Source: an uncultured Lachnospiraceae bacterium (GTDB lineage Bacteria; Bacillota; Clostridia; Lachnospirales; Lachnospiraceae). Taken from it: a DNA stretch of 64,000 nucleotides. Every line of letters begins with the position of its first letter. Position 1 is the stretch's first letter. Location of the stretch: NCBI GenBank assembly GCA_910587935.1, contig CAJUNP010000013.1:2070-66069 (forward strand), in the 5' to 3' direction. Below are positions 6,947 to 64,000 of the stretch, one piece after another. The notes under the pieces were generated by a model that saw only the letters and a list, made by a program, of their open reading frames with translations, was not told where the DNA came from and did no database searches. The position numbers and the translations under genes were made by a program.

Positions 6947-7148
6947 CGCTCCTTATTTCATGTATCCGTTCTATCAGAACGAAAATACACACGCCTGCGA
7001 GGAGAAGCGGAATCAGTCCGAACAACAGCTTTAAAATAAAGGGCATGGGCATCCATGCGCAGACAGCAAAAAATCCAACATAATACAGCACAAGGATTAC
7101 CGTGATAACCACGGGCGCAATCATTTTATTGCGGTGAGTCTGATTCAT
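6918..7148 (-). CDS. Small membrane protein (2 TM helices), unknown function
   Basis: ATG 7148 lies 6 nt after AGGAGG. Hydrophobic segments MIAPVVITVILVLYYVGFFAVCAW and LLFGLIPLLLAGVCIFVLI. Its 3' end overlaps the YbjQ start. Confidence 0.45.
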   Translation of the reverse strand: MNQTHRNKMIAPVVITVILVLYYVGFFAVCAWMPMPFILKLLFGLIPLLLAGVCIFVLIERIHEIRSGEEDDLSKY

Positions 7149-7263
7149 AAACATCCTCCTGACAAAAGCGTCGTCAACTGTTACCGTAATATTATAGCAC
7201 ATGCCGTATACTCCCGTAAAGTGTTGCTGCGGTTTGTCATATCGCGTATTTTCAGGACAATTT

Positions 7264-7509
7264 TCAGCGGTTATTTTCTTTTTCGCGGTACTTTTTTTGG
7301 CGCATGTCTTCTCTCAAAAGATCGTCCAACTCGGGTTCTTTTTGTCTGCGTGACTGAAACAGTCCGATCAGAATGCAAAATGCTGCCGGAACGGCGCTGA
7401 TCCAGAACGCCCATGACGGCGCTTCAGGATCGGCCATGGACCAGAATAAATACGGCATATAAAGTAACATTCCCACAAGAACCAGACGAAATCCTGTTAT
7501 ATTTTTCAT
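7264..7509 (-). CDS. Small membrane protein, unknown function
   Basis: ATG 7509 follows GGAAGGGA. Two hydrophobic helices (FRLVLVGMLLYMPYLF, AFWISAVPAAFCILIGLF) and a basic C-terminal tail. The start is uncertain; the ORF is open to 7542. Confidence 0.4.
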   Translation of the reverse strand: MKNITGFRLVLVGMLLYMPYLFWSMADPEAPSWAFWISAVPAAFCILIGLFQSRRQKEPELDDLLREDMRQKKYREKENNR

Positions 7510-7907
7510 ATTACTCATCCCTTCCGGGCATAAAGAGCCCATTATTGTCTGCGTATATGATTACCCTCAAAATCTTTAGTATACAAATCCATATACAGGG
7601 TCACTTCTTTTAAGTTTTTTTGCCGCCTATGGTATAAGGAATATAAACGACGCCATGCTGGTCAAAGCTGATAACCGATTCGCCCTCGTTTAGGGAGTTT
7701 GGCGTCACTCTTCGGTAGCGCCGTTGTAAACAGGATCTGCATGATAACATGAAATACGGGTAACCTGGCCGGTAGAAGGTATGGCCGTACGGATGCTTTG
7801 TATATGGACTCATTATTGCATGAAAAAAGAAATGCGTCAATGTTGCGAATGGGAATACACAGTGCTAAAATTAAAATATAAATTATGTATAACAGGAGGA
7901 CGCAGAA

Positions 7908-53149: not shown

Positions 53150-53461
53150 CTATTTGCGATGTAATCCTTTTGAGACTGCCAGTACTGTATGAAGCTGCGT
53201 ATCATCCAAGTATTTTAGTTCTTCCAGAATTTCGTTAATTAAAGGCGGGTTTGTAACATCCGTGTCAAAAAAATCTTTTGGTGTAATATCCAGATATTCA
53301 CAGATATAGAAAAAGGCAGCCATGGAGGGAAAGGCAAGTTTGTTTTCAATACGGTTAATATAACTGCAGTTTTGTCCGATAGCCAGGCTCATTTCTCTTG
53401 CAGAAACATTTTTCTGCATACGTAAAAAGGCGATTCTGTCAGCAAAAAAATCTTCATACAT
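53150..53461 (-). CDS. XRE-family helix-turn-helix transcriptional regulator
   Basis: About 103 aa from ATG 53461. HTH VSAREMSLAIGQNCSYINRIENKLAFPSMAAFFYICEYLDITPKDFF. Confidence 0.8.
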   Translation of the reverse strand: MYEDFFADRIAFLRMQKNVSAREMSLAIGQNCSYINRIENKLAFPSMAAFFYICEYLDITPKDFFDTDVTNPPLINEILEELKYLDDTQLHTVLAVSKGLHRK

Positions 53462-53670
53462 AAATATCACCCTCCTATAAGTTATTATATGCTATAACTC
53501 TTTTGAAATCAGATATTGAAAATAGTAAAATAGACGAAACAAGATATAGTATGACCTGAAGTGCACAATTTAAGATATCAAATCATTAAAATAACATATT
53601 CCGGAAGATGGTACTGCATGACATCATATAAATTAGAAAATTTACTATGTGGGCAGAAGGGGGTATTGTT

Positions 53671-54369
53671 ATGTTAAATTATATTTGGGCATTTATGATT
53701 TTGGTGGGAGTTCTTTTCGGAGCGGTCACGGGAAAAATGGAGGCTGTTACAAACGCGGCAATTGATTCGGCAGGAGAAGCCGTTTCCTTATGCGTCACCA
53801 TGCTTGGTGTTATGGCTTTATGGGTAGGACTTATGGAAATTGCCAGGAATTCCGGCCTGATTGCTAAGATGACCCGGGGGATACAGCCTTTTATTTCTTT
53901 TATGTTTCCGAAAATTCCCCAGGGTCATGCGGCAAGAGAATACATTTCGACGAATATTATTGCGAATGTTATGGGATTAGGCTGGGCCTGTACGCCGGCA
54001 GGATTGAAGGCCATGGAGGAGCTGGCGAAGCTGGAGGAGGAGAGGGGGACGCCGGGATATGTGTCGGCAGGGGAAGGCATTTTTGCAGACGGAAAGAAAA
54101 AGGGGAACAAGACAGGTAAGAGCGGCGTTGAGTTGCCCGTGGTGGCAAATGGAAAGAGCGGCAGGGTTGCCAGCAATGAGATGTGCACGTTTTTGATTTT
54201 GAATATTTCTTCTTTGCAATTAATACCCGTGAATATGATCGCGTACAGAAGCCAGTATGGGAGCGTGAATCCGGCGGGGATTATTGCGCCGGCGATTGTG
54301 GCGACGTTTGTCAGTACGGCGGTAGCGGTGGTATATTGTAAGGTGAAGGATGGGAGGCGGAGAGTTTGA
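53671..54369 (+). CDS. spmA: Spore maturation protein A / nucleoside-recognition (Gate) domain membrane protein
   Basis: ATG 53671 follows GAAGGGGG. MLNYIWAFMILVGVLFGAVTG ... ANVMGLGWACTPAGLKAMEEL ... MCTFLILNISSLQLIPVNMIAYRSQYGS.NPAGIIAPAIVATFVSTAVAVVYCKV. It contains an unusually long G/K-rich loop (GYVSAGEGIFADGKKKGNKTGKSGVELPVVANGKSG). Confidence 0.85.
   Translation: MLNYIWAFMILVGVLFGAVTGKMEAVTNAAIDSAGEAVSLCVTMLGVMALWVGLMEIARNSGLIAKMTRGIQPFISFMFPKIPQGHAAREYISTNIIANVMGLGWACTPAGLKAMEELAKLEEERGTPGYVSAGEGIFADGKKKGNKTGKSGVELPVVANGKSGRVASNEMCTFLILNISSLQLIPVNMIAYRSQYGSVNPAGIIAPAIVATFVSTAVAVVYCKVKDGRRRV
54001..54369 (+). repeat. Direct repeat copy A: 3' end of spmA (in frame, part of the intact gene)
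   Basis: Homologous to 56641-56941. Shares the block GLKAMEELAKLE and the last roughly 70 codons. The identical 15-mer CTGGCGAAGCTGGAG is at 54022-54036. Confidence 0.85.
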
Positions 54370-54492
54370 GGACTTTCCGCTTTATTCATTAGTTATATCC
54401 CAATGTTTTATCGGATACATATAAGAAAATATATGAGAAAAACAAGGTATAGCATATATAAAATTATGATATTATTGGATTATATATTGCCA

Positions 54493-54521
54493 TTGACATA
54501 TAAAAATTAGAAATGTATAAT
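54493..54521 (+). promoter_or_regulatory. Perfect-consensus sigma-A promoter of the cassette
   Basis: TTGACA (54493-54498), exactly 17 nt, TATAAT (54516-54521). It lies 29 nt upstream of ATG 54551. Confidence 0.65.
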
Positions 54522-54550
54522 AGCATAAAATATTGGAAAGGACTAATTGG

Positions 54551-55531
54551 ATGAATTATCAAAATATTATTGATGACTTTATAACAGAATATCCAGATTA
54601 TAAAAGTGATGTAATGAATTTTACCGAATATCTGGAAATACATTGGGGAAATTCTTTGTCGGGAGAACCACTCCGTATTTTACTTAAGGGTATAGACGTT
54701 GAATTTATATTACAGAGCCTGATTTATAATGTGGAAGATATACAGCGATATAAGAGCAAGACAAAGGCTAAACGGTATGCCACCGTGGTAGGATTGCTTT
54801 TTAACTACATCCGAAAGACTACAGATATTGCAAACCCTGAATTATATGATGCAATTTCGTTTAACCGCCTGCGGGAAAATTCATATATGAAACGAATGAT
54901 GGCATATATTGAGAAATGTGATTTGCTTGCGGGTATAGTTGAGCAGGAACCGTTGACGTTTATGCAAGCCGAAGAACTTTTGGCATGGTCAAATGAACAG
55001 CTTGAAGATACAGAATGGGGAGGGGCTACGGATCTTAAGAAGGCAATGGCGGCTATCGGAATAAAGATGATGATGCTTTATGGGATCACATATCGTGAAT
55101 TGAGAAAAATCAAATGGGAGAATTTCGATGAATATTATGGTTTTATTACAGTAAATGGTTTTGAACTTCGTTTGCCGCCCAAATTGTCAAGGCAGTTACA
55201 GCAAGTGCAGAAATTTGTTTTTCAGAATCATGTAAAGAGCAATGAGGACTTGCTTTTTACGGATGGGAATGGAGAACCGTGGGGGGAGATAACATCTTCT
55301 TCTGGAATTCCCGACTATTTAGGGACTTTGATAGAAGTTACAAGTGTAACCAGCATTGTCAAGTATGGAATAGGACAACTTCTCAAGGCTGGGTTAAGTG
55401 ATTCTGTTATTAAAAAAATAACAGGTGCAAGTGATAAACTGATTCAAGGGTGTCTCTTGACAGAGGATGATGAACTCAAAAAGACTATAAATAATAAAAT
55501 TGTTATGGCAGAGTTATATTATGAGTTTTGA
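54551..55531 (+). CDS. Tyrosine-recombinase-like protein lacking most catalytic residues
   Basis: ATG 54551 lies 8 nt after AAAGGA, giving 326 aa. An N-terminal SAM-like/core-binding-like region is followed by LYGITYRELRKIKWENFD (Arg-I box retained), LLFTDGNGEPW, SVTSIVKYGIGQLLKAGL in place of H-x-L-R-H, ITGASD in place of LGHS, and LIQGCLLT in place of the Tyr box. Confidence 0.6.
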   Translation: MNYQNIIDDFITEYPDYKSDVMNFTEYLEIHWGNSLSGEPLRILLKGIDVEFILQSLIYNVEDIQRYKSKTKAKRYATVVGLLFNYIRKTTDIANPELYDAISFNRLRENSYMKRMMAYIEKCDLLAGIVEQEPLTFMQAEELLAWSNEQLEDTEWGGATDLKKAMAAIGIKMMMLYGITYRELRKIKWENFDEYYGFITVNGFELRLPPKLSRQLQQVQKFVFQNHVKSNEDLLFTDGNGEPWGEITSSSGIPDYLGTLIEVTSVTSIVKYGIGQLLKAGLSDSVIKKITGASDKLIQGCLLTEDDELKKTINNKIVMAELYYEF

Positions 55532-55563
55532 AGAAGATAGAGCAGACAGGGAGAGATAAATCT

Positions 55564-56598
55564 GTGGATGAAAATAAAGGTGAAGTTTTAATCTATCAGT
55601 CAGAAGACGGATTAACCAATGTCGAAGTAACTGTACGGGATGAAACGGTTTGGCTTTCCCAACAACAAATGGCAGAGCTGTTTCAAACGTCGAGAACAAA
55701 TGTTGTAGAACACATAAAACATATTTTTGCAGAAGGAGAATTAGACGAAGCCTCAACCTGTCGGAATTTCCGACAGGTTCGGCAGGAGGGAACAAGGCAG
55801 GTTACAAGAGAGATACCATATTATAATCTGGATATGATTATATCTTTGGGATATAGAATAAAGTCTCTTATAGCAACGAGATTCAGGAAATGGGCAACAG
55901 AACGTTTAAAGGAATACATGGTTAAGGGCTTTACGATGGATGACGAACGCCTTAAAGGCAATGGTGGAGGGAATTATTGGAAAGAGCTTTTAGACCGTAT
56001 TCGTGATATTCGTTCTTCGGAAAAAGTGCTTTATCGTCAGGTTTTGGATTTATATGCCACAAGTGTAGATTATGACCCCCATAGTGAGGAGTCGATTCGT
56101 TTTTTTAAAATAGTACAAAATAAGCTTCATTTTGCGGCACATGGACATACTGCGGCAGAAATAGTTTTTGAGCGTGCTGATGCACAAAAACCTTTTATGG
56201 GATTGACATCCTTTTCAGGAGAGTTACCTGCTCTTAAAGATATTGGAATTGCAAAGAATTATTTAAAGGAAGATGAACTAAAGATACTAAATAATTTGGT
56301 ATCTGGTTATTTTGATTTGGCGGAAATTAATGCGATTGAACATCGCCCAATGTACATGAATGATTATGTTGAACAGCTTGATTCGGTATTATCGTCAGGA
56401 AATAGAAAAATACTCAGTGATGGTGGCAGAGTAAGCCATGCTCAGGCAATGAAAAAAGCAAAAGAAGAATACCAAAAGTATCAGGCAGCCACAATTTCTC
56501 CGGTTGAGGACGCTTACCTAAAAACAGTAAAAATGGCAGCTAAAGCAGCAAAACAGCAAAACAGGCTGGTAGAAAAAACAAATACTGATGGACGATAA
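55564..56598 (+). CDS. RhuM-family protein (PF13310-like)
   Basis: VLIYQSEDGLTNVEVTVRDETVWLSQQQMAELFQTSRTNVVEHIKHIFAEGEL ... YNLDMIISLGYRIKS..ATRFRKWATERLKEYMVKGF ... WKELLDRIRDIRSSEK is the hallmark RhuM N-terminal pattern. GTG 55564 (7 nt after GGGAGAG) is preferred. TTG 55528, which overlaps the upstream stop, is the alternative. Confidence 0.7.
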   Translation: MDENKGEVLIYQSEDGLTNVEVTVRDETVWLSQQQMAELFQTSRTNVVEHIKHIFAEGELDEASTCRNFRQVRQEGTRQVTREIPYYNLDMIISLGYRIKSLIATRFRKWATERLKEYMVKGFTMDDERLKGNGGGNYWKELLDRIRDIRSSEKVLYRQVLDLYATSVDYDPHSEESIRFFKIVQNKLHFAAHGHTAAEIVFERADAQKPFMGLTSFSGELPALKDIGIAKNYLKEDELKILNNLVSGYFDLAEINAIEHRPMYMNDYVEQLDSVLSSGNRKILSDGGRVSHAQAMKKAKEEYQKYQAATISPVEDAYLKTVKMAAKAAKQQNRLVEKTNTDGR

Positions 56599-56640
56599 TG
56601 ATGTTATTTTTAAAGTTCGTGTCATTAACTTGACACAAGG

Positions 56641-56941
56641 GGGGCTGAAGGCGATGGAGGAACTGGCGAAGCTGGAGCAAGATAGAGGGAATCCGGCGTA
56701 TTTGAGTGATAGTAAGAGAACGGGTGGAAAGCAGGAGCGTATTGCAAGTAATGAAATGTGTACATTTTTGATATTAAACATTTCATCGTTACAGCTGATC
56801 CCCGTTAATATGATTGCTTACAGGCAGCAGTACGGGAGCGTGAACCCGGCGGGAATCATTGCCCCGGCAATTATGGCGACATTTGTGAGTACGGCGGTGG
56901 CAGTAGTATACTGCAAAGTGAAAAATAGGAAAAAAATCTAA
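56641..56941 (+). pseudogene. Direct repeat copy B: headless 3' fragment of an spmA gene
   Basis: Encodes GLKAMEELAKLEQDRGNPAYLSDSKRTGGKQERIASNEMCTFLILNISSLQLIPVNMIAYRQQYGSVNPAGIIAPAIMATFVSTAVAVVYCKVKNRKKI. The roughly 110 N-terminal residues of SpmA are absent, and the upstream 17 codons of the tracked ORF are unrelated. Confidence 0.8.
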
Positions 56942-57058: not shown

Positions 57059-59500
57059 ATGATTGCACACATTTCAGAAGACGGACTTAAAAGAGAAGAA
57101 TCTGTAGCGGAACACACCGAAAAGACCAGATTGTTATGCGATCAAAAAGGGAAGCGGTGCGGTATTTCCCAGCTTATGTCATTATGCGCAATTTTGCATG
57201 ATATGGGAAAAAACAAGCGCAAATTTGACGAATACCTGCGTGCGGATGAAAAAGTAAGACAAAAGTTAAAAGGCAGCATTGCCCATGCTTCTACAGGGGC
57301 AAAGTATGTCTATGACCTGCTCCGTGACGATACCGCCAACATGCGGTTGATGACAGAGATGATTTCTTATGCGTCAGCTGCGCATCACGGGTTATTTGAC
57401 TGTGTGGATCCGGAATATACCGATAGATTTTCAAAAAAATTAAGTGCGGTTGACGATTATGATGAAGCTTGCCGCAATGCAAAGCGGGATTATCTGGATG
57501 CGTATGATCAGGATCAATTATTTGCGGAGTCGTTTTGTGAATTTCAAGCTGTTTTGGAAAAAATTAAAATCATATATAACGAACTTAAGCCTGCGCTGTT
57601 ATCTAAGGGCAATCGAGATATAAAAGAACGATTATCCGGCTGCAGGCTCTTTTTGTTTTCCTGTTTGCAGCGCCTGATTTTATCCATATTAATTGATTCG
57701 GACTGGGAGGCAACCTCCGATTTTATGGAGAATGTGGACACAATGTCAAAAAAGCCGCGTTTTCCTGTAAAAGAGCGCTTTAAAAAAGCTGGGGAAAATT
57801 TTGCGTCATATATGCGGAAAAAACAGCAGTCCATAAATATTTCCGGACTGACGGATAAAGAAAAAATCATTTTTGAAGCAAGAAATGCGCTGCAGGAGGA
57901 ATGTAGACAGTTTGCAAAATATCCTGCCGGGATATACTGTCTGCCTGTCCCTACCGGCGGCGGAAAGACGCTCGGCAGCCTTGCGTATGCATTGGAATAC
58001 TGCAGGCTTCACCCCGAAACGGAACGCGTTATCTATGTGTCTCCATATATCAGCGTTACGGAGCAGAATGCGCAGGTATTCCGCGAAGCCATAGGCAATG
58101 ACGACTGGATATTGGAACATCATTCTTCCGTTGTCAGAAATGAAAGGACAGAAGATGAGGATTACAAAACCGAAAAGCTGTCGAGGTATGACATAAACTG
58201 GGAAGAACCGTTTATCTGTACAACATTCGTTCAGTTTATGAATACGCTTTTTTCGGATAAAAGCGAGTCCGTACGGCGTATGCACAGGCTTGTCAACGCG
58301 GTTGTCATTATCGATGAAGTGCAGTCGATGCCGTTAAAATGCGTACATACTTTTAACTATATGATTAACTTCCTGAATAAAGTATGCAATACGGATATTG
58401 TTCTGTGTACCGCGACGCAGCCGGCTTTAGCGGAAACCGAGTGCCCTGTCTGTTACGGAAAACCGCAGTACATGATTAAAAATGTTGCCGACTGGTTTTA
58501 TAAGTTTGAACGGGTCAGGATACATACGCCCGGAATAGACGAAAAGTATACCTTTAAGAGCCTCGGGGACGAAATTCTGGAAAGGACAGAGCGGTTCAAA
58601 TCAATTCTTGTGGTGCTGAATACGAAGTCGGCGGTGAGAAAGCTGTATGATATATTAAAAGCGCGGGGGATTCCTGCGGAGTATCTTACCACAAACTTAT
58701 GCGCCGAGCACAGAAGCGATAAGATTAAGTCCATAAAAGAAATACTGGAGAAAAAGCAGAAGCCGATTGTTGTAGTCAGTACGAATCTGATCGAGGCGGG
58801 CGTGGATATTTCCTTTGAATGTGTATACCGTTCTATGGCGGGGCTGGACAGTCTGGCACAGACGGCGGGACGGTGCAACCGAAACGGCGAACTGGATTAT
58901 GGGACAATCCGCCTGATTCAGCTTGAGGATGAAAAAACCGGAAATATGGAAGAATTACAGCAGAATATCAGGGCGGCGGAAAACGTTCTATACCAGTTTG
59001 AGAACAGCGATAAGCGGGAAAGCCTTCTGATGCCCGGATGGATGGAAACATATTATCGGAATGTGTACTGTAATATGTCGGACACAATGAATTTTCCGAT
59101 CAAAAAACTGGATACAAATATACTGGAACTCCTGTCGGCCGGATTTGGTACGCCGGGAACCATGGGAGACAGGAAAAACCAGATGAATCAGGCGTATAAG
59201 ACCGCGGGCCGGGAGTACCGGGTGATAGACGACGATTCATTTGGCGTAATTGTGCCATATAAGAAAGGGGCGGAGATTATTGAAGCCATTCAGACGGCGG
59301 CGGATACGGCGCAGATAAAAACACATATAAGAAATGCCCAGAGGTATACGGTAAACGTCAGGGGAAGCCAGTTGAAAAAATTCAGCGGACTGATACAGGC
59401 GGTAAGCGATTCCGTACCGGGCCTTTATATGGCGGCCGCGCCGGGATCGTACAGCCTGGAATATGGGATTACGCCGGAGTGGGAGACCCTTATATTTTAA
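57059..59500 (+). CDS. cas3: CRISPR-associated helicase/endonuclease Cas3 (HD nuclease + SF2 helicase), type I-C context
   Basis: 813 aa. HD domain VAEHTEKT...AILHDMGKNKRKF...AAHHGLFD. Helicase motif I LPVPTGGGKTLGSL, motif II VVIIDEVQSM, motif III CTATQP, motif VI AQTAGRCNRNG. Confidence 0.9.
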   Translation: MIAHISEDGLKREESVAEHTEKTRLLCDQKGKRCGISQLMSLCAILHDMGKNKRKFDEYLRADEKVRQKLKGSIAHASTGAKYVYDLLRDDTANMRLMTEMISYASAAHHGLFDCVDPEYTDRFSKKLSAVDDYDEACRNAKRDYLDAYDQDQLFAESFCEFQAVLEKIKIIYNELKPALLSKGNRDIKERLSGCRLFLFSCLQRLILSILIDSDWEATSDFMENVDTMSKKPRFPVKERFKKAGENFASYMRKKQQSINISGLTDKEKIIFEARNALQEECRQFAKYPAGIYCLPVPTGGGKTLGSLAYALEYCRLHPETERVIYVSPYISVTEQNAQVFREAIGNDDWILEHHSSVVRNERTEDEDYKTEKLSRYDINWEEPFICTTFVQFMNTLFSDKSESVRRMHRLVNAVVIIDEVQSMPLKCVHTFNYMINFLNKVCNTDIVLCTATQPALAETECPVCYGKPQYMIKNVADWFYKFERVRIHTPGIDEKYTFKSLGDEILERTERFKSILVVLNTKSAVRKLYDILKARGIPAEYLTTNLCAEHRSDKIKSIKEILEKKQKPIVVVSTNLIEAGVDISFECVYRSMAGLDSLAQTAGRCNRNGELDYGTIRLIQLEDEKTGNMEELQQNIRAAENVLYQFENSDKRESLLMPGWMETYYRNVYCNMSDTMNFPIKKLDTNILELLSAGFGTPGTMGDRKNQMNQAYKTAGREYRVIDDDSFGVIVPYKKGAEIIEAIQTAADTAQIKTHIRNAQRYTVNVRGSQLKKFSGLIQAVSDSVPGLYMAAAPGSYSLEYGITPEWETLIF

Positions 59501-59525
59501 CATAAAGAGAAAGGACGGGTGAAGC

Positions 59526-60272
59526 ATGGACAAGCCTAATATCATTGAATACAGCGTATTCGGGAGATATGCATTATTTACGGACCCTGTGTCTAAGACA
59601 GGCGGAGAAAAGTGCAGCTACCAGATACCTACTTATCAGGCGCTGAAAGGAATAACGGAATCCATATATTGGAAACCTACCATAACGTGGATTATTGATG
59701 AGTGCCGTATTATGAGTCAGATCCGGACGGAATCGAAAGGAATGAGACCGATAAAATACGGCGGCGGCAACGATTTAGCCTATTATACCTATCTGCACAA
59801 CGTGGAATATCAGGTAAGGGCGCACTTTGAATGGAATGAAAGCCGGGAAGATCTGGCACAGGACCGCAATGAAAATAAACACTACGACATTGCCAGAAGA
59901 ATGGTTGAGAGAGGAGGACGGAGGGATATTTTCCTGGGCGCGAGAGAATGTCAGGGATATGTGGAGGCCTGTTCTTTTGGGGAAGGAAAAGGAGCGTATG
60001 ACGGGATGGATATGTCCTACGGCATCATGGTGCATGGCATCACATATCCGGACGAGGCTGTCAGAGAAGAGGAAAAAGGAAAAATGACGGTGCGGCTTTG
60101 GAACGCACAGATGAAAAACGGAGTTCTGCATTTTCCGCGTCCGGAGGAATGTACGATCCGCAAGGTTCTGCGTGATGCAAAAGAAAAGCGGTTTGTGCCG
60201 GGGCAGAACTTCAGGGGATTACAGGAATTTGAAGGAGGTGAGTTATTTGGCTTTGCTAAAGACTTTGGCTGA
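59526..60272 (+). CDS. cas5: Cas5d (Cas5c) pre-crRNA endoribonuclease subunit, type I-C
   Basis: 248 aa. [42 protein letters not shown] ... [16 protein letters not shown] is closely similar to characterised Cas5d proteins. Confidence 0.9.
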
Positions 60273-62169
60273 TACCTATGATGTCTTTGCCGACCAGGCG
60301 GGAGCCGATAAGAACGGGCAGCCGGTGTTGCTGCCGATTTCCCATTCGACCTTTAATGCCCAGATAGAGGTGGCGATCGATCAGGATGGTAATTTTCAGG
60401 GAGCCAAAAAGCTTGAAAAGGGCAGGGATGTGGTGACAATTATCCCGGTCACAGAAGATTCGGCGGCCAGGAGCAGCGGCATTGCGCCGCATCCACTGTG
60501 TGATAAGCTCTGTTATGCGGCGGGAGATTATACCCTGTATACGGGCGATGATAAGGAAGCGTATTTTGAGGCCTACATTGAGTTGCTGCGGGATTGGGCG
60601 GAATCTGAGTTTACACATCCCATGGTAAAGGCGGTATACCAATATGTAAATAAGAAATTGCTGATACAGGATCTGGTAATGAGTAAAGCGTTGGAATTGG
60701 ACGAAGACGGTAAGCTCACGGATCACGTTAAAATACACGGACAGGGACAAACGGGAGCTAATGTACGGTTTGTAGTCCGAGGAAACAGTATGCCGCAGGA
60801 AGTGTGGAAGAATCAGGAGCTATATAATAGGTACTGTGAATATTATAAACAAAAATCAGAGGGAAAGCAGCTGTGTTATATATCCGGCGATATTGTATCC
60901 TGCTCTGACAAGCATCCGTCCAAGATCCGTAACAGCGGCGATAAGGCAAAGCTGTTATCGGGAAATGATGAATCCGGTTTTACATACCGCGGAAGGTTTA
61001 CTTCAAAAGAACAGGCGGTTACGGTCGGATATGACACGTCCCAGAAGGCGCATAACGCGCTTCGGTGGCTGATTCAAAAGCAAGGGTATACGCGTGATGA
61101 ATCGGCGATTGTCTGGTGGATGACAAACCGGGATATGCAGCTTCCGGATATGATGAAGGACTCCGTCAACGCATGGCAGGCGGTAGACGACTTTGACTTT
61201 GACAATATTGCTTCCGATGAGACTGTAAAGCGTGATACGGGTAAATATTTTGCGGAGCAGTTTAACAATGCGGTAAACGGTTATGCCGGAAAGGTCAGGG
61301 TGGATGACCGGGTTGCCGTTGCCGCTCTGGATGCGGCGACAACGGGGCGCCTTTCGGCCGTGTACTATGATGAAATGGGCGGAAAGCAGTATATCGATGC
61401 AATACTGAACTGGCAGCAGCATTGTAAGTGGCGCCGTACCATTAAATTGGGAAGGACGGAAGAAAGTATAAAAAGAATTACCTGCGAGTGTACGCCGTCC
61501 CCCAGGGATATGGCGCTTGCAGCCTTTGGTGTACAGAGATCGGAATGGCTGGAGGCGGATGGGAAGCTGCTTCGCGCAACGGTTAAACGGCTGCTCCCAT
61601 GCATCACGAAAAAGGGAACGCCGATTCCCGAAGATATGATTAAAGCGGCGGTGCGGCGGGCGTCCATGCCGCAGACAATGAGCGAATTTGTCTGGTATAA
61701 CGACGTGCTGTGCGTTGTATGCGCAATGATACGGTATAAATATGAGCAGAGAGGTAAAGCAATGGAAAATTTTTTGAATGACAACGAAAACGATCGAAGC
61801 GTTCTTTTCGGGCGGCTGCTGGCAGTGTATGATTTTATGGAACAGCAGGCAATGTTTGAATATGACGAAAACGGCAAGGTGAAGGAACAGCGGACAACCA
61901 ATGCAAAGCGTTACTGGAATGCGTATAGCAGCAGGCCGGCAAGAACGTTAAAGGCAATCAGACAAAATCTGGTTCCTTATGAAAAAAAGCTGAAGGACTA
62001 CAATCGGAAAAGGTTTGAGGATTGGGCAGGCGGCATTATGATGCGCATGGACAGAAATATCTATGATAACACGCCCCTGTCGGAACTGTATTTACCCGCA
62101 TATTATCAACAAATGGAATGGATGAAAAACGAGTATTGGAAAAAAGGCGAACAGGAGTCTGCGGACTGA
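60247..62169 (+). CDS. cas8c: Cas8c (Csd1) large subunit, type I-C
   Basis: TTG 60247 lies 6 nt after GGAGGTG, giving 640 aa. Size and position between cas5d and cas7/csd2 fit, as does the N-terminus [12 protein letters not shown]. The 60172 start in the track would overlap cas5 by 100 nt. Confidence 0.8.
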
Positions 62170-62198
62170 CAAACGAAAAGAAAGGCGAGGATAAAAGT

Positions 62199-63050
62199 AT
62201 GAGCGAATTTACAAACAAAATTGATTTTGAAGTTTTGGCAATGGTTAAAAATGCGAATCCCAACGGCGATCCGTTAAATGGTAACAGGCCGCGCGAGACC
62301 TACGACGGATATGGAGAAATTTCAGACGTATGTATTAAACGAAAAATCAGAAACCGACTGCAGGATATGGGTGAAAAGATTTTTGTTCAGAGTGACGAAC
62401 GGTCTGACGACGGGTGTAAGAGTCTTGCGGACCGGGCCAAGAGCAACGAACTGATGCAGAAAGCGTTAAAGGAAAAAGATAAAGAGACTTATGCAAAGGC
62501 GGCCTGTGAGACATGGATCGATGTGCGCAGCTTTGGTCAGGTGTTTGCATTTAAAGACGACAGTGTATCCGTCGGCGTAAGAGGTCCCGTATCGGTTCAT
62601 TCTGCGTTCAGCGTATTGCCGGTGTCCATTGACAGTATGCAGATTACCAAAAGCGTTAACAGCGAAACGGAAAAAAGCGGAAAGAAATCCTCCGACACCA
62701 TGGGAATGAAACACAAAATATACTCGGCTTTATACGTTATAAAGGGAAGTATCAACTGCCAGCTTGCCGAAAAGACAGGGTTTGGGGATGAAGACGCGGA
62801 GAAAATCAAAGAGGCGCTTCGTACTTTGTTCGTAAACGACAGTTCGTCCGCAAGGCCGGACGGAAGCATGGAAGTTTGCAAGGTATACTGGTGGAAGCAT
62901 AATTGTCCTGCAGGACAGTACTCATCGGCAAAGGTCCATAAGCTTGTAAGGATTGAGGCAAAAACGGATGATCCCAAGGAGTTTGAAGATTACGAAATAA
63001 AAGTAGATTCTCTGCCGGATCTGGCTTTGGAAGAAATAGAAGGTATTTAA
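62199..63050 (+). CDS. cas7: Cas7 (Csd2) backbone subunit, type I-C
   Basis: ATG 62199 follows AAAGGCGAGGA, giving 283 aa. FEVLAMVKNANPNGDPLNGNRPRETYDGYGEISDVCIKRKIRNRL is the canonical Csd2 N-terminus. Confidence 0.9.
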   Translation: MSEFTNKIDFEVLAMVKNANPNGDPLNGNRPRETYDGYGEISDVCIKRKIRNRLQDMGEKIFVQSDERSDDGCKSLADRAKSNELMQKALKEKDKETYAKAACETWIDVRSFGQVFAFKDDSVSVGVRGPVSVHSAFSVLPVSIDSMQITKSVNSETEKSGKKSSDTMGMKHKIYSALYVIKGSINCQLAEKTGFGDEDAEKIKEALRTLFVNDSSSARPDGSMEVCKVYWWKHNCPAGQYSSAKVHKLVRIEAKTDDPKEFEDYEIKVDSLPDLALEEIEGI

Positions 63051-63052
63051 TT

Positions 63053-63712
63053 ATGTATTTTGAAGAAGACTATCTGATGCTTTCCGGGATACAGCATTTT
63101 GCTTTTTGCAGAAGGCAGTGGGCGCTGATACATATCGAACAGCAGTGGACTGATAATTACAGGACAACCGCTGGTGAACTGATGCACAAAAAAGCCCATG
63201 ACGCGGGTTCCTTTGAGAAGAGGGGAAATTTACTGATCGTCAGAGGAATGAGAATTACATCCCGCGAACTGGGCCTGAGCGGACAGTGCGATGTTGTCGA
63301 ATTTCGTCAGAATGAGAAGGGTATCGATTTATTCGGGTATGATGGGAAATGGAGTCCGAAGCCTGTAGAATACAAGCATGGTGTACCCAAAGAAAATAAT
63401 GCAGATGAACTACAGCTGTGCGCACAGGCAATATGCCTTGAGGAAATGTTTCAGACACAGATACCGGACGGAGATTTGTATTACGGTGAAAACAGACGCC
63501 GCAGTCATGTGGAATTTACGGACAGTTTGCGGGAAGAAGTAAAAAGGGCGGTAAAGGAAATGCACGATTTATTTCAAAGAGGTTATACGCCCAATGTTAA
63601 GCCTGCTAAGAAATGCAAGGCGTGTTCCCTGGAAAATCTGTGTGTTCCAAAGCTGCAAAAGGCAATAAGGGTCAGGGAATATATCAGACAGGGTATTAAG
63701 TCAGATGATTAA
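63053..63712 (+). CDS. cas4: Cas4 (RecB-like exonuclease with 4-Cys cluster)
   Basis: 219 aa. N-terminal Cys FAFCRRQW, nuclease motif CDVVEF...PVEYKHG, QLCAQAICLEE, C-terminal CKACSLENLC. Confidence 0.9.
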   Translation: MYFEEDYLMLSGIQHFAFCRRQWALIHIEQQWTDNYRTTAGELMHKKAHDAGSFEKRGNLLIVRGMRITSRELGLSGQCDVVEFRQNEKGIDLFGYDGKWSPKPVEYKHGVPKENNADELQLCAQAICLEEMFQTQIPDGDLYYGENRRRSHVEFTDSLREEVKRAVKEMHDLFQRGYTPNVKPAKKCKACSLENLCVPKLQKAIRVREYIRQGIKSDD

Positions 63713-63756
63713 ATGTCAAAAAGCGTTTTCAGACAGAATATACAGGGAGTGTTAAT

Positions 63757-64000
63757 GTGCGGAAATTACTGAATACTTTATATGTTATGACAGAGAATTG
63801 TTATTTGACTCTTGAAGGCGAAAATATCGTGATACTGGATGGTGAGAAAACACTGGGGAGATTCCCGCTTCACACACTGGAGAATATCATATGTTTTACT
63901 TACAAGGGGACAAGTCCGGCGTTAATGGGGGCCTGCGTGGAACGGAACACAGGAATCAGTTTTTTCTCTCCGAGAGGAGCGTTTCTGGCGAGGGCTGTCG
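63757..64000 (+). CDS. cas1: Cas1 integrase, N-terminal part (continues beyond the window)
   Basis: GTG 63757 follows GGGAGTG. RKLLNTLYVMTENCYLTLEGENIVILDGEKTLGRFPLHTLENIICF is the typical type I-C Cas1 N-terminus. The frame is open to the window edge. Confidence 0.85.
   Translation, partial: MRKLLNTLYVMTENCYLTLEGENIVILDGEKTLGRFPLHTLENIICFTYKGTSPALMGACVERNTGISFFSPRGAFLARAV

Follow-up and report, generated by a model that had tools for sequence, protein, structure and literature searches.

Why should an intact gene behind a perfect consensus promoter encode an integrase-like protein whose catalytic residues have been replaced? This question is raised by an open reading frame (ORF) in a 64,000-nt stretch of DNA from an uncultured Lachnospiraceae bacterium (assembly GCA_910587935.1, contig CAJUNP010000013.1, positions 2,070 to 66,069 of the forward strand), which is referred to below as the window and whose coordinates are used throughout. 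The gene, here called int326, extends from 54551 to 55531 on the + strand, starts with ATG and encodes 326 aa. An in-frame TTG at 54533, upstream of this ATG, is not used by the homologues, all of which start with MNYQ or MDYQ. The protein is predicted to have the fold of a tyrosine recombinase without its chemistry, the gene is under strong purifying selection, and it stands at the head of a horizontally mobile cassette of defence genes. We tentatively suggest that its product is a DNA-binding regulator.

Fold, active site and conservation of int326

The int326 sequence has no match in Pfam, NCBIfam, PADLOC or, using phmmer, the PDB, and PF00589 does not match it even at E≤1. Only PHROG_1 (“integrase”) matches it by sequence, and weakly (E=3e-3). 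PF00589 matches 19 of 92 relatives, also weakly (best E=6e-6). An AlphaFold2 (AF2) model built on 31 homologues, with a mean predicted local distance difference test score (pLDDT) of 84.5 and a predicted template modelling score (pTM) of 0.66, was compared with the PDB using Foldseek. The top 39 matches were all tyrosine recombinases, with both domains covered and a probability of 1.0; XerA, XerH, Tn1549 Int, Cre, lambda Int and IntI were the best-matched structures (XerA 5hxy, E=4e-6). Named matches of the model in BFVD were integrases almost throughout. At the level of profiles, the 92-member family aligns with XerA 4a8e of P. abyssi (E=3e-6) and with a genuine phage integrase (hhalign probability 93%). 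The model and the structure search reveal the two-domain architecture of core-binding (CB) and catalytic (CAT) domain, and int326 is predicted to adopt the full tyrosine-recombinase fold. This is in accordance with the original prediction, in which the fold had been recognised by eye from the sequence.

The catalytic positions were mapped by two independent alignments, one of the family profile with XerA 4a8e and one by hhalign with the phage integrase, which gave the same outcome (Table 1). The acidic residue E183 is the only member of the catalytic set left in int326. The GxxxxEL helix and the beta-hairpin-LP motif are kept. The R/HxxR/H/Y set is absent in all 92 representatives, down to 20% identity. 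The loss of the set had been noted in the original prediction, which had nevertheless retained the first Arg; this part does not hold, as the assignment was misaligned by two residues. The residue concerned, R182, is offset by +2 in both alignments and occupies the Ser position of G-L-R-x-S-E-L. The tyrosines Y322/Y323, previously considered as a possible C-terminal nucleophile, were also rejected: they are located ~20 residues past the Tyr position and vary across the family, and the arginines are gone. No hidden Arg/His/Arg/Tyr set was recovered. From its sequence, int326 is predicted to be catalytically dead.

Other residues are nearly invariant family-wide, namely K172, G178, P209, F236, K271, T291 and C301. 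The residue directly preceding the Tyr position, C301, is kept in 90 of the 92 representatives, and K172, T291 and K271 are kept in 91, 88 and 82, respectively. These four map around the former active-site pocket.

The family is large. A search of 5.8 billion proteins found 166 clusters, almost all of exactly 326 aa and from Lachnospiraceae, and an exhaustive search of representatives yielded at least 167 clusters at 50% identity, reaching down to ~20% identity. There is no Pfam or NCBIfam model for it. The length of 326 aa is constant over at least 120 clusters. In pairwise comparisons of 37 distinct coding sequences the median dN/dS was 0.06–0.08 in every dS bin. Most homologues are intact, and the few frameshifted or truncated copies (in loci L043, L056, L058, L062 and L065) are as expected for mobile DNA. 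We conclude that int326 is under strong purifying selection and is not decaying. The idea that the gene is maintained for a non-catalytic role is thereby upheld: the fold is kept, the catalytic set is absent family-wide, dN/dS is low, and the frameshifts and stops that would mark a pseudogene are confined to a minority of copies. In practice, int326-type genes should neither be annotated as integrases nor be used for calling elements self-mobile. As for carriage by phages or plasmids, int326 had no match in PLSDB, where only RhuM matched, or in INPHARED.

The cassette led by int326 and its relatives

Int326 is preceded by a sigma-A-type promoter, the sole 12/12 consensus match among 16 promoter-like sites between 53000 and 57500. 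Most diverged int326 homologues also have a TTGAC(A/T) −35 element and a near-consensus −10 element upstream, and the ribosome binding site (RBS) is kept in close homologues. The gene preceding the promoter, which is spmA-like, is followed by a terminator-like hairpin (54354–54383, −20.6 kcal/mol, z=−4.4) that folds better than all of 200 shuffled sequences. As this hairpin is located between the spmA-like gene and the promoter, int326 appears to open a new transcription unit. The perfect promoter in front of an intact gene had been pointed out in the original prediction as a feature of this gene. The consensus match stands, but it is not peculiar to int326, since such promoters are common to cassette heads in the spmA system described here.

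The 3′ half of the spmA-like gene, from 54001, forms the left repeat of the int326 cassette. The segment 54005–54355 recurs at 56646–56930, with 77–81% DNA identity, as part of a displaced 3′ half that we denote spmC′. A conserved non-coding motif of ~35 nt, AAAGTTCGTGTCAYTAACTTGACACAAGGGGG, abuts every displaced spmC′ copy, and the intact spmA gene lacks it. This junction motif has a single occurrence in the window, where none is expected by chance. A scan of metagenomes for it returned 94 stretches, nearly all with a spmA 3′ half directly after the motif; it is absent from IMG/VR. The motif was rejected both as a structured RNA, since it folds no better than shuffled sequences (z=−0.1) and has no Rfam match, and as coding sequence, since many copies have in-frame stops upstream.

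Table 1. Features of the int326 locus (window coordinates) and residues of int326 at the positions of the recombinase active site.
Feature	Position	Strand	Remark
Intact spmA-like membrane protein gene	53647-54369	+	240 aa; Gate / nucleoside-recognition domain, PF07670 E=2.7e-4
Int326 cassette	54001-56645	+	2.65 kb; spmA 3′ half, terminator, promoter, int326, rhuM, motif
Left copy of 32-nt core TGAAGGCCATGGAGGAGCTGGCGAAGCTGGAG	54005-54036	+	spmA codons ~120-130; homology to right repeat begins sharply
Terminator-like hairpin and U-tract	54354-54390	+	directly after spmA stop codon
Promoter TTGACA-17-TATAAT	54493-54521	+	sigma-A-type, cassette head; −35 54493-54498, −10 54516-54521
RBS GGAAAGGA	54535-54542	+	8 nt before int326 ATG
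RhuM-family gene (rhuM)	55528-56598	+	cassette cargo; PF13310 1.7e-108; PADLOC PDC-S05 3e-156
Junction motif AAAGTTCGTGTCATTAACTTGACACAAGGGGGGC	56611-56645	+	right cassette end; inverted repeat GTGTCA-N6-TGACAC
Displaced spmA 3′ half (spmC′)	56646-56941	+	core 56646-56677; frame intact to stop
Type I-C CRISPR-Cas genes (cas3, cas5c, cas8c, cas7, cas4)	57059-64000	+	directly after array; locus runs past window
Arg-I	T180
Beta-hairpin Lys	about F204		removed, 5-residue deletion
His-II	T267
Arg-II	V270
His-III	A293
Tyr nucleophile	L302

The same order, with spmA, int326, variable cargo and a copy of spmA residues ~116–240, was found in other genomes. Homologues of the upstream spmA-like gene occupy this place in L004, L014, L020 and other loci. 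The array was seen in 48 genome loci (L019–L066, from a collection holding one genome per species) and the 94 metagenome stretches, almost all of them from Lachnospiraceae; arrays were noted, for instance, in L004, L091, L095, L113, L120 and L153. An array can contain up to four spmA 3′-half repeats (L037, L040, L041, L056), and the frame is intact in 25 of 31 displaced spmC′ copies. Int326 is found in the first, second or third cassette, or is absent. Possible cultured carriers of the gene are Lachnospiraceae bacterium IMSAGC_002 (L019), JLR.KK008 (CP143548, L003) and A4 or 28-4 (L037, L040). One locus, L019, shares window positions 54001–56704 at 96% identity behind a different left neighbour, and this identity starts exactly at the core. 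Between genomes whose spmA 5′ halves are only 52–82% identical, int326 is 93–99% identical, which indicates that the cassette moves horizontally. The spmA cassette array with its junction motif appears to be undescribed.

Deviations from this layout were also observed. An IS200-type Y1 transposase is found between spmA and the int326 homologue in L014–L016 (about 7120–7660), and the intergenic region thus tolerates insertions. In Lachnospiraceae bacterium JLR.KK008 (L001–L003:3349-7763) the stretch from spmA to the int326 homologue has no junction motif and is occupied by three small ORFs together with genes for a RelA_SpoT-domain and an HD-domain protein. The homologue is here located 55 nt upstream of cas3, with no RhuM in between. 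This layout is a variant island architecture.

The cargo following int326 in the window is a RhuM-family gene whose start is ambiguous: it could be TTG 55528, which overlaps the int326 stop codon, or GTG 55564, which is placed behind the Shine-Dalgarno sequence AGGGAGAG. We consider GTG 55564 the more likely start, and the RhuM homologue of L029 starts at the equivalent position. The choice bears on any claim of translational coupling with int326. Int326 is paired with RhuM in about 16 of the 48 genome loci, and RhuM-type cargo was assigned to 13 loci when the cargo was clustered. Apart from RhuM (PDC-S05), the cargo types comprise HipA_C+HIRAN (PDC-M03 A/B, a complete two-gene candidate), NsnA/NsnB, HEC-02A, a PDC-M28-like protein, HEPN-MNT, a type IIG restriction-modification (R-M) enzyme and type I-C CRISPR-Cas. 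Of 165 cargo ORFs in the arrays, 162 are co-oriented. All cargo in the arrays can thus be classed as known or candidate defence genes. The 165 clustered ORFs yielded no canonical recombinase, and hmmsearch with the family profile caught only the int360 family.

Int360 is a second family of cassette leaders, 337–360 aa in length, that is encoded at L056:11220-12302, L043:12500-13582, L023:7079-8092 and 9 more loci. It is only ~15% identical to int326; the two are connected by hhalign (probability 98.6%, E=6e-16) and by hmmsearch (E values of 1e-24 to 1e-31 for full-length members), which place int360 in the same putative superfamily of dead recombinases. The gene is preceded by the terminator hairpin of a spmA copy (spmC′) and by a promoter of its own, TTGACA-17-TAGAAT, with a partial copy of the junction motif (CCGTGTCACTG) upstream of it. 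It is usually followed by a 532-aa protein, or by a protein of 443–450 aa that is AlbA_2-like as judged by eye only. A PF09820 AAA-ATPase-like annotation in L005/L008 belongs to a 125-aa ORF that is an apparent fragment of the 532-aa family. PADLOC has no model for int326, int360 or the 532-aa protein. Among 15 loci with a complete first cassette, five are led by int326, five by int360 and five by neither, and all three kinds have the same junction motif. Since one motif serves them all, int326 and int360, divergent as they are, are unlikely to be its readers.

Operons led by int326 also occur away from spmA, in L048/L030 (after a gltD-like gene), L029 and L047. No flanking repeats or target duplications were found at the L048, L029 and L047 sites. 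Distant relatives are encoded by prophages or mobile elements that carry their own real recombinases (L070, L166, L167), which in L166 and L167 are tyrosine integrases. In L069–71 the relative is located one or two genes upstream of terS/terL. In L057 and L068 it adjoins a large serine integrase, and such a neighbourhood is where lysogeny modules sit; in L068 it also follows an Xre-type helix-turn-helix (HTH) gene. Bro-N or KilA-N proteins come after the relatives in L068, L057 and L044. An oddly placed, genuine XerC-like integrase of 282 aa was seen between terS and terL in the phage contig L070 (11851-12699), one gene downstream of the dead-recombinase homologue. Another distant homologue, L064, was uninformative, since its contig begins at the gene.

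Several repeats were also noted in this part of the window. A perfect 15-nt inverted repeat, ATATCCAGATTATAA, has one arm at the 5′ end of int326 (54589–54603) and the other in rhuM (55821–55835). It was rejected as an operator, as synonymous variation at this place is not reduced among 20 diverged homologues, and although unusually long it is probably due to chance. Further sites containing TCCAGAT, at 53286–53299 and 54626–54639, were likewise discounted. A 28-nt imperfect inverted repeat (53477–53504 / 54440–54467) encloses spmA, with its right arm stopping shortly before the int326 promoter, and an XRE-family HTH gene is located upstream of spmA on the − strand (53150–53470).

Possible functions of int326

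Taken together, our tentative preference is that int326 is a sequence-specific DNA-binding regulator, most likely a repressor. Its DNA binding, the identity of its target site and its repressing activity are things that we infer, and so is the choice of a regulator among the roles named in the original prediction (DNA binding or bending, regulator, sensor). It is the genomic context (array, junction motif, defence cargo) that narrows the function, and five lines of evidence point to regulation. First, the predicted fold is intact while the chemistry is gone superfamily-wide, and selection is strong. Second, the only constant context is that of a first gene behind a strong TTGACA promoter with co-oriented defence genes next to it, also outside the spmA arrays. 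Third, int360 likewise leads cassettes, from a TTGACA promoter of its own. Fourth, the distant relatives sit in prophages and other mobile elements that have real recombinases of their own. Fifth, there is an experimental precedent in MrpR (YopR) of SPbeta. What is constant is thus the promoter-proximal leader position in defence operons and mobile-element modules, together with the intact DNA-clamp fold, and not the spmA site.

In such a mechanism, int326 would retain the two-domain DNA clamp without catalysis and would bind a cognate DNA site. Its expression would be driven by the constitutive consensus promoter, at the head of a defence cassette that moves horizontally. Its target could be the operator region of its own cassette promoter, in which case it would gate both its own expression and that of the co-oriented defence cargo. 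Alternatively, the target could be matching operators on incoming phages that encode relatives, which would result in repressor-type immunity.

Several observations weigh against regulation. No operator was identified, and no repeated element similar to the SPBRE sites of SPbeta was recognised. The direct repeats that flank the promoter (ATTATTGGA at 54472–54480 and ATATTGGAA at 54530–54538) may be operator candidates but are AT-rich. Synonymous variation inside int326 is not suppressed among the 20 diverged homologues. Homology to MrpR could not be detected, as hhalign of the family profile with YopR gives a probability of 0.2%, blastp gives no significant match and the MrpR structure 8A0A is absent from the PDB profile matches; the precedent is therefore one of function, not of homology. 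Furthermore, MrpR keeps the catalytic Lys and Tyr, and the int326 family has neither. The near-invariant cluster of C301, T291, K271 and K172 around the former active site is not explained by a regulator role, and recombination would account equally for the fact that int326 always comes directly after the spmA repeat.

A role in recombination is the basis of the first alternative, which we consider unlikely. Here, int326 would be a non-catalytic accessory acting at the attachment region of the cassette (junction motif and spmA core), which it would bind and either bend or synapse. It would recruit or partner an unlinked catalytic recombinase, such as a tyrosine recombinase of the host's Xer type or of another type, for the integration and excision of cassettes, in the manner of a target selector such as TnsF or of an inactive partner in a hetero-tetramer. 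Int326 is located ~180–210 nt downstream of a spmA or spmC′ copy in the arrays, which is the classic att-proximal position of an integrase. The unit that the window has in common with L019 (core, spmC′, promoter, int326, cargo, motif) is bounded exactly at the core, the far better conservation of int326 than of the spmA 5′ half across species implies horizontal transfer to the same site, and the multiple repeats with mostly intact displaced frames suggest ongoing rearrangement. No canonical recombinase came up among the cargo ORFs, and TnsF sets a precedent for the use of an inactivated tyrosine-recombinase domain in targeting (PMC10293859). However, the same junction motif accompanies int326, the very different int360 or neither, which makes a reader role unlikely, and only 10 of the 15 complete first cassettes carry either leader. 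Int326-led operons exist at other loci without flanking repeats, the relatives in phages and mobile elements are located away from att sites and alongside real integrases, and a constitutive consensus promoter is atypical of integration functions.

A broader proposal, to which we give equally little credence, is that the spmA locus of gut Lachnospiraceae is a cassette system resembling integrons. Site-specific recombination would capture and stack defence cassettes, each with a replacement spmA 3′ half and ending in the 35-nt motif, and would exchange them between species. Int326 and int360 would then be element-encoded subunits for DNA recognition or synapsis, acting via an unlinked catalytic partner or via a non-canonical K/K/T/C active site.

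Somewhat more doubtful is the proposal that int326 is itself a component of defence. It could be the sensor or specificity subunit, recognising phage DNA structures or a phage protein, of a modular two-gene system with the adjacent effector (RhuM in the window), or it could act as a dominant-negative decoy of a phage-encoded homologue. The pair does recur and co-diverge, with 51–63% identity of int326 and 43–51% identity of RhuM in L050, L052, L053, L059 and L063. Bro-N/KilA-N proteins follow the distant relatives, and the N-terminus of RhuM weakly matches Bro-N/Rha. In addition, one and the same 532-aa protein accompanies int360 in almost every case, and int326 is found in a defence island adjoining CRISPR-Cas. 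Against this, the partners include complete independent systems that should need no extra subunit (PDC-M03 A+B, the type IIG R-M enzyme, I-C CRISPR-Cas), and PADLOC lacks an int326 model. The cargo is replaced from variable points after the int326 stop codon, with 5′ remnants of RhuM in L022 and L034, which looks like swapping behind a fixed leader and unlike co-adapted pairs, and the overlap of int326 and rhuM is uncertain given the GTG 55564 start.

It is very improbable that int326 is an active recombinase of a non-canonical type, the integrase of the spmA cassettes, in which K172, K271, T291 and C301 cleave and rejoin DNA. The near-invariance of these residues (82–91 of 92) around the former pocket would be accounted for, and so would the integrase-like genomic placement in arrays where no other recombinase was seen. 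Both transition-state arginines, the hairpin with the general-acid Lys and the nucleophile are all gone, however. We know of no DNA transesterase with a Cys or Thr nucleophile in a tyrosine-recombinase fold, which counts against such catalysis. Moreover, int360 has a Thr in place of C301, and the relatives co-occur with genuine integrases. Finally, the view that int326 is a functionless relic, a dead integrase gene passively carried at the edge of a hotspot of homologous recombination, could draw on the few broken copies and on the fact that cassette exchange could in principle use RecA and the 350-bp repeats, yet it is effectively refuted by the selection analysis, with low dN/dS at all divergence levels, a constant length, a conserved promoter and RBS, and motifs kept down to 20% identity.

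This work defines a large, unnamed and conserved family and ties it to a setting in which its function can be tested, namely at the head of mobile anti-phage cassettes. If its members are regulators, they would form a new class of gatekeepers of defence islands in gut Firmicutes, and they would also serve as a marker in the discovery of new defence genes. Should they instead act in cassette movement, the spmA array would represent a new mechanism of cassette capture.

Relation to known systems

A dead DNA-binding protein with a tyrosine-recombinase fold is a known kind of protein. The int326 family and its role as leader of defence cassettes appear to be undescribed in the literature that we searched. 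Its best structural matches, covering both domains, are the Xer-type and phage recombinases (XerA 5hxy/4a8e, XerH 5jk0, Tn1549 Int, Cre), from which int326 differs in missing all of R-K-H-R-H/W-Y.

As an arrangement of genes, the spmA array resembles the cassette arrays of integrons and the tandem accretion of SCC-type or ICE/CIME elements at the 3′ end of a host gene. It shares with them co-oriented tandem cassettes bounded by conserved sites, some without a recombinase-like gene, adaptive cargo and a target gene that is left intact. Its repeat, however, is a 350-bp coding 3′ half with a 35-nt motif, in place of an attC hairpin or short direct repeat. In contrast to the IntI platform, int326 is predicted to be dead, is located inside the cassettes instead of at a fixed head, and is absent from a third of them.

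Few cases are known in which recombinase-fold proteins have become non-catalytic DNA-binding factors, MrpR and TnsF being examples. TnsF of Tn6022-like Tn7 transposons uses an inactivated domain derived from a tyrosine recombinase for sequence-specific DNA recognition and directs the element into the conserved host gene comM (PMC10293859). It is a protein of 498 aa that combines N-terminal zinc fingers with two CB-like domains and a partial CAT domain, and it works with TniQ/TnsABC. Int326, in contrast, has a single complete CB+CAT pair and no zinc fingers, and it is surrounded by spmA, RhuM and the cas genes without any Tn7 gene nearby.

MrpR (YopR; 325 aa, PDB 8A0A) is the master repressor of SPbeta in Bacillus subtilis. 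It binds the SPBRE elements and has a tyrosine-recombinase fold whose recombinase function has been lost; its authors suggested that such recruitment of the fold may be more widespread than previously expected (PMC10516654). Like int326, it is ~325 aa long, consists of a CB and a CAT domain and has its catalytic Arg/His residues replaced (Table 3 of PMC10516654), and it is likewise encoded by a mobile element of Firmicutes, one that has a separate (serine) integrase. Apart from the retained Lys and Tyr, it differs from int326 in being part of a phage lysogeny module and in binding repeated SPBRE sites, whereas int326 heads a chromosomal defence cassette.

The closest parallel in genomic distribution is provided by the WYL-domain regulators BrxR/CapW, in which a conserved DNA-binding gene comes first, before many unrelated defence systems or islands, and for which repression and ligand sensing have been demonstrated (PMC9122601, PMC9122588). 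Int326 has the same distribution with a different fold, a tyrosine recombinase instead of wHTH-WYL-WCX, and the repression and sensing demonstrated for BrxR/CapW would be presumed for int326.

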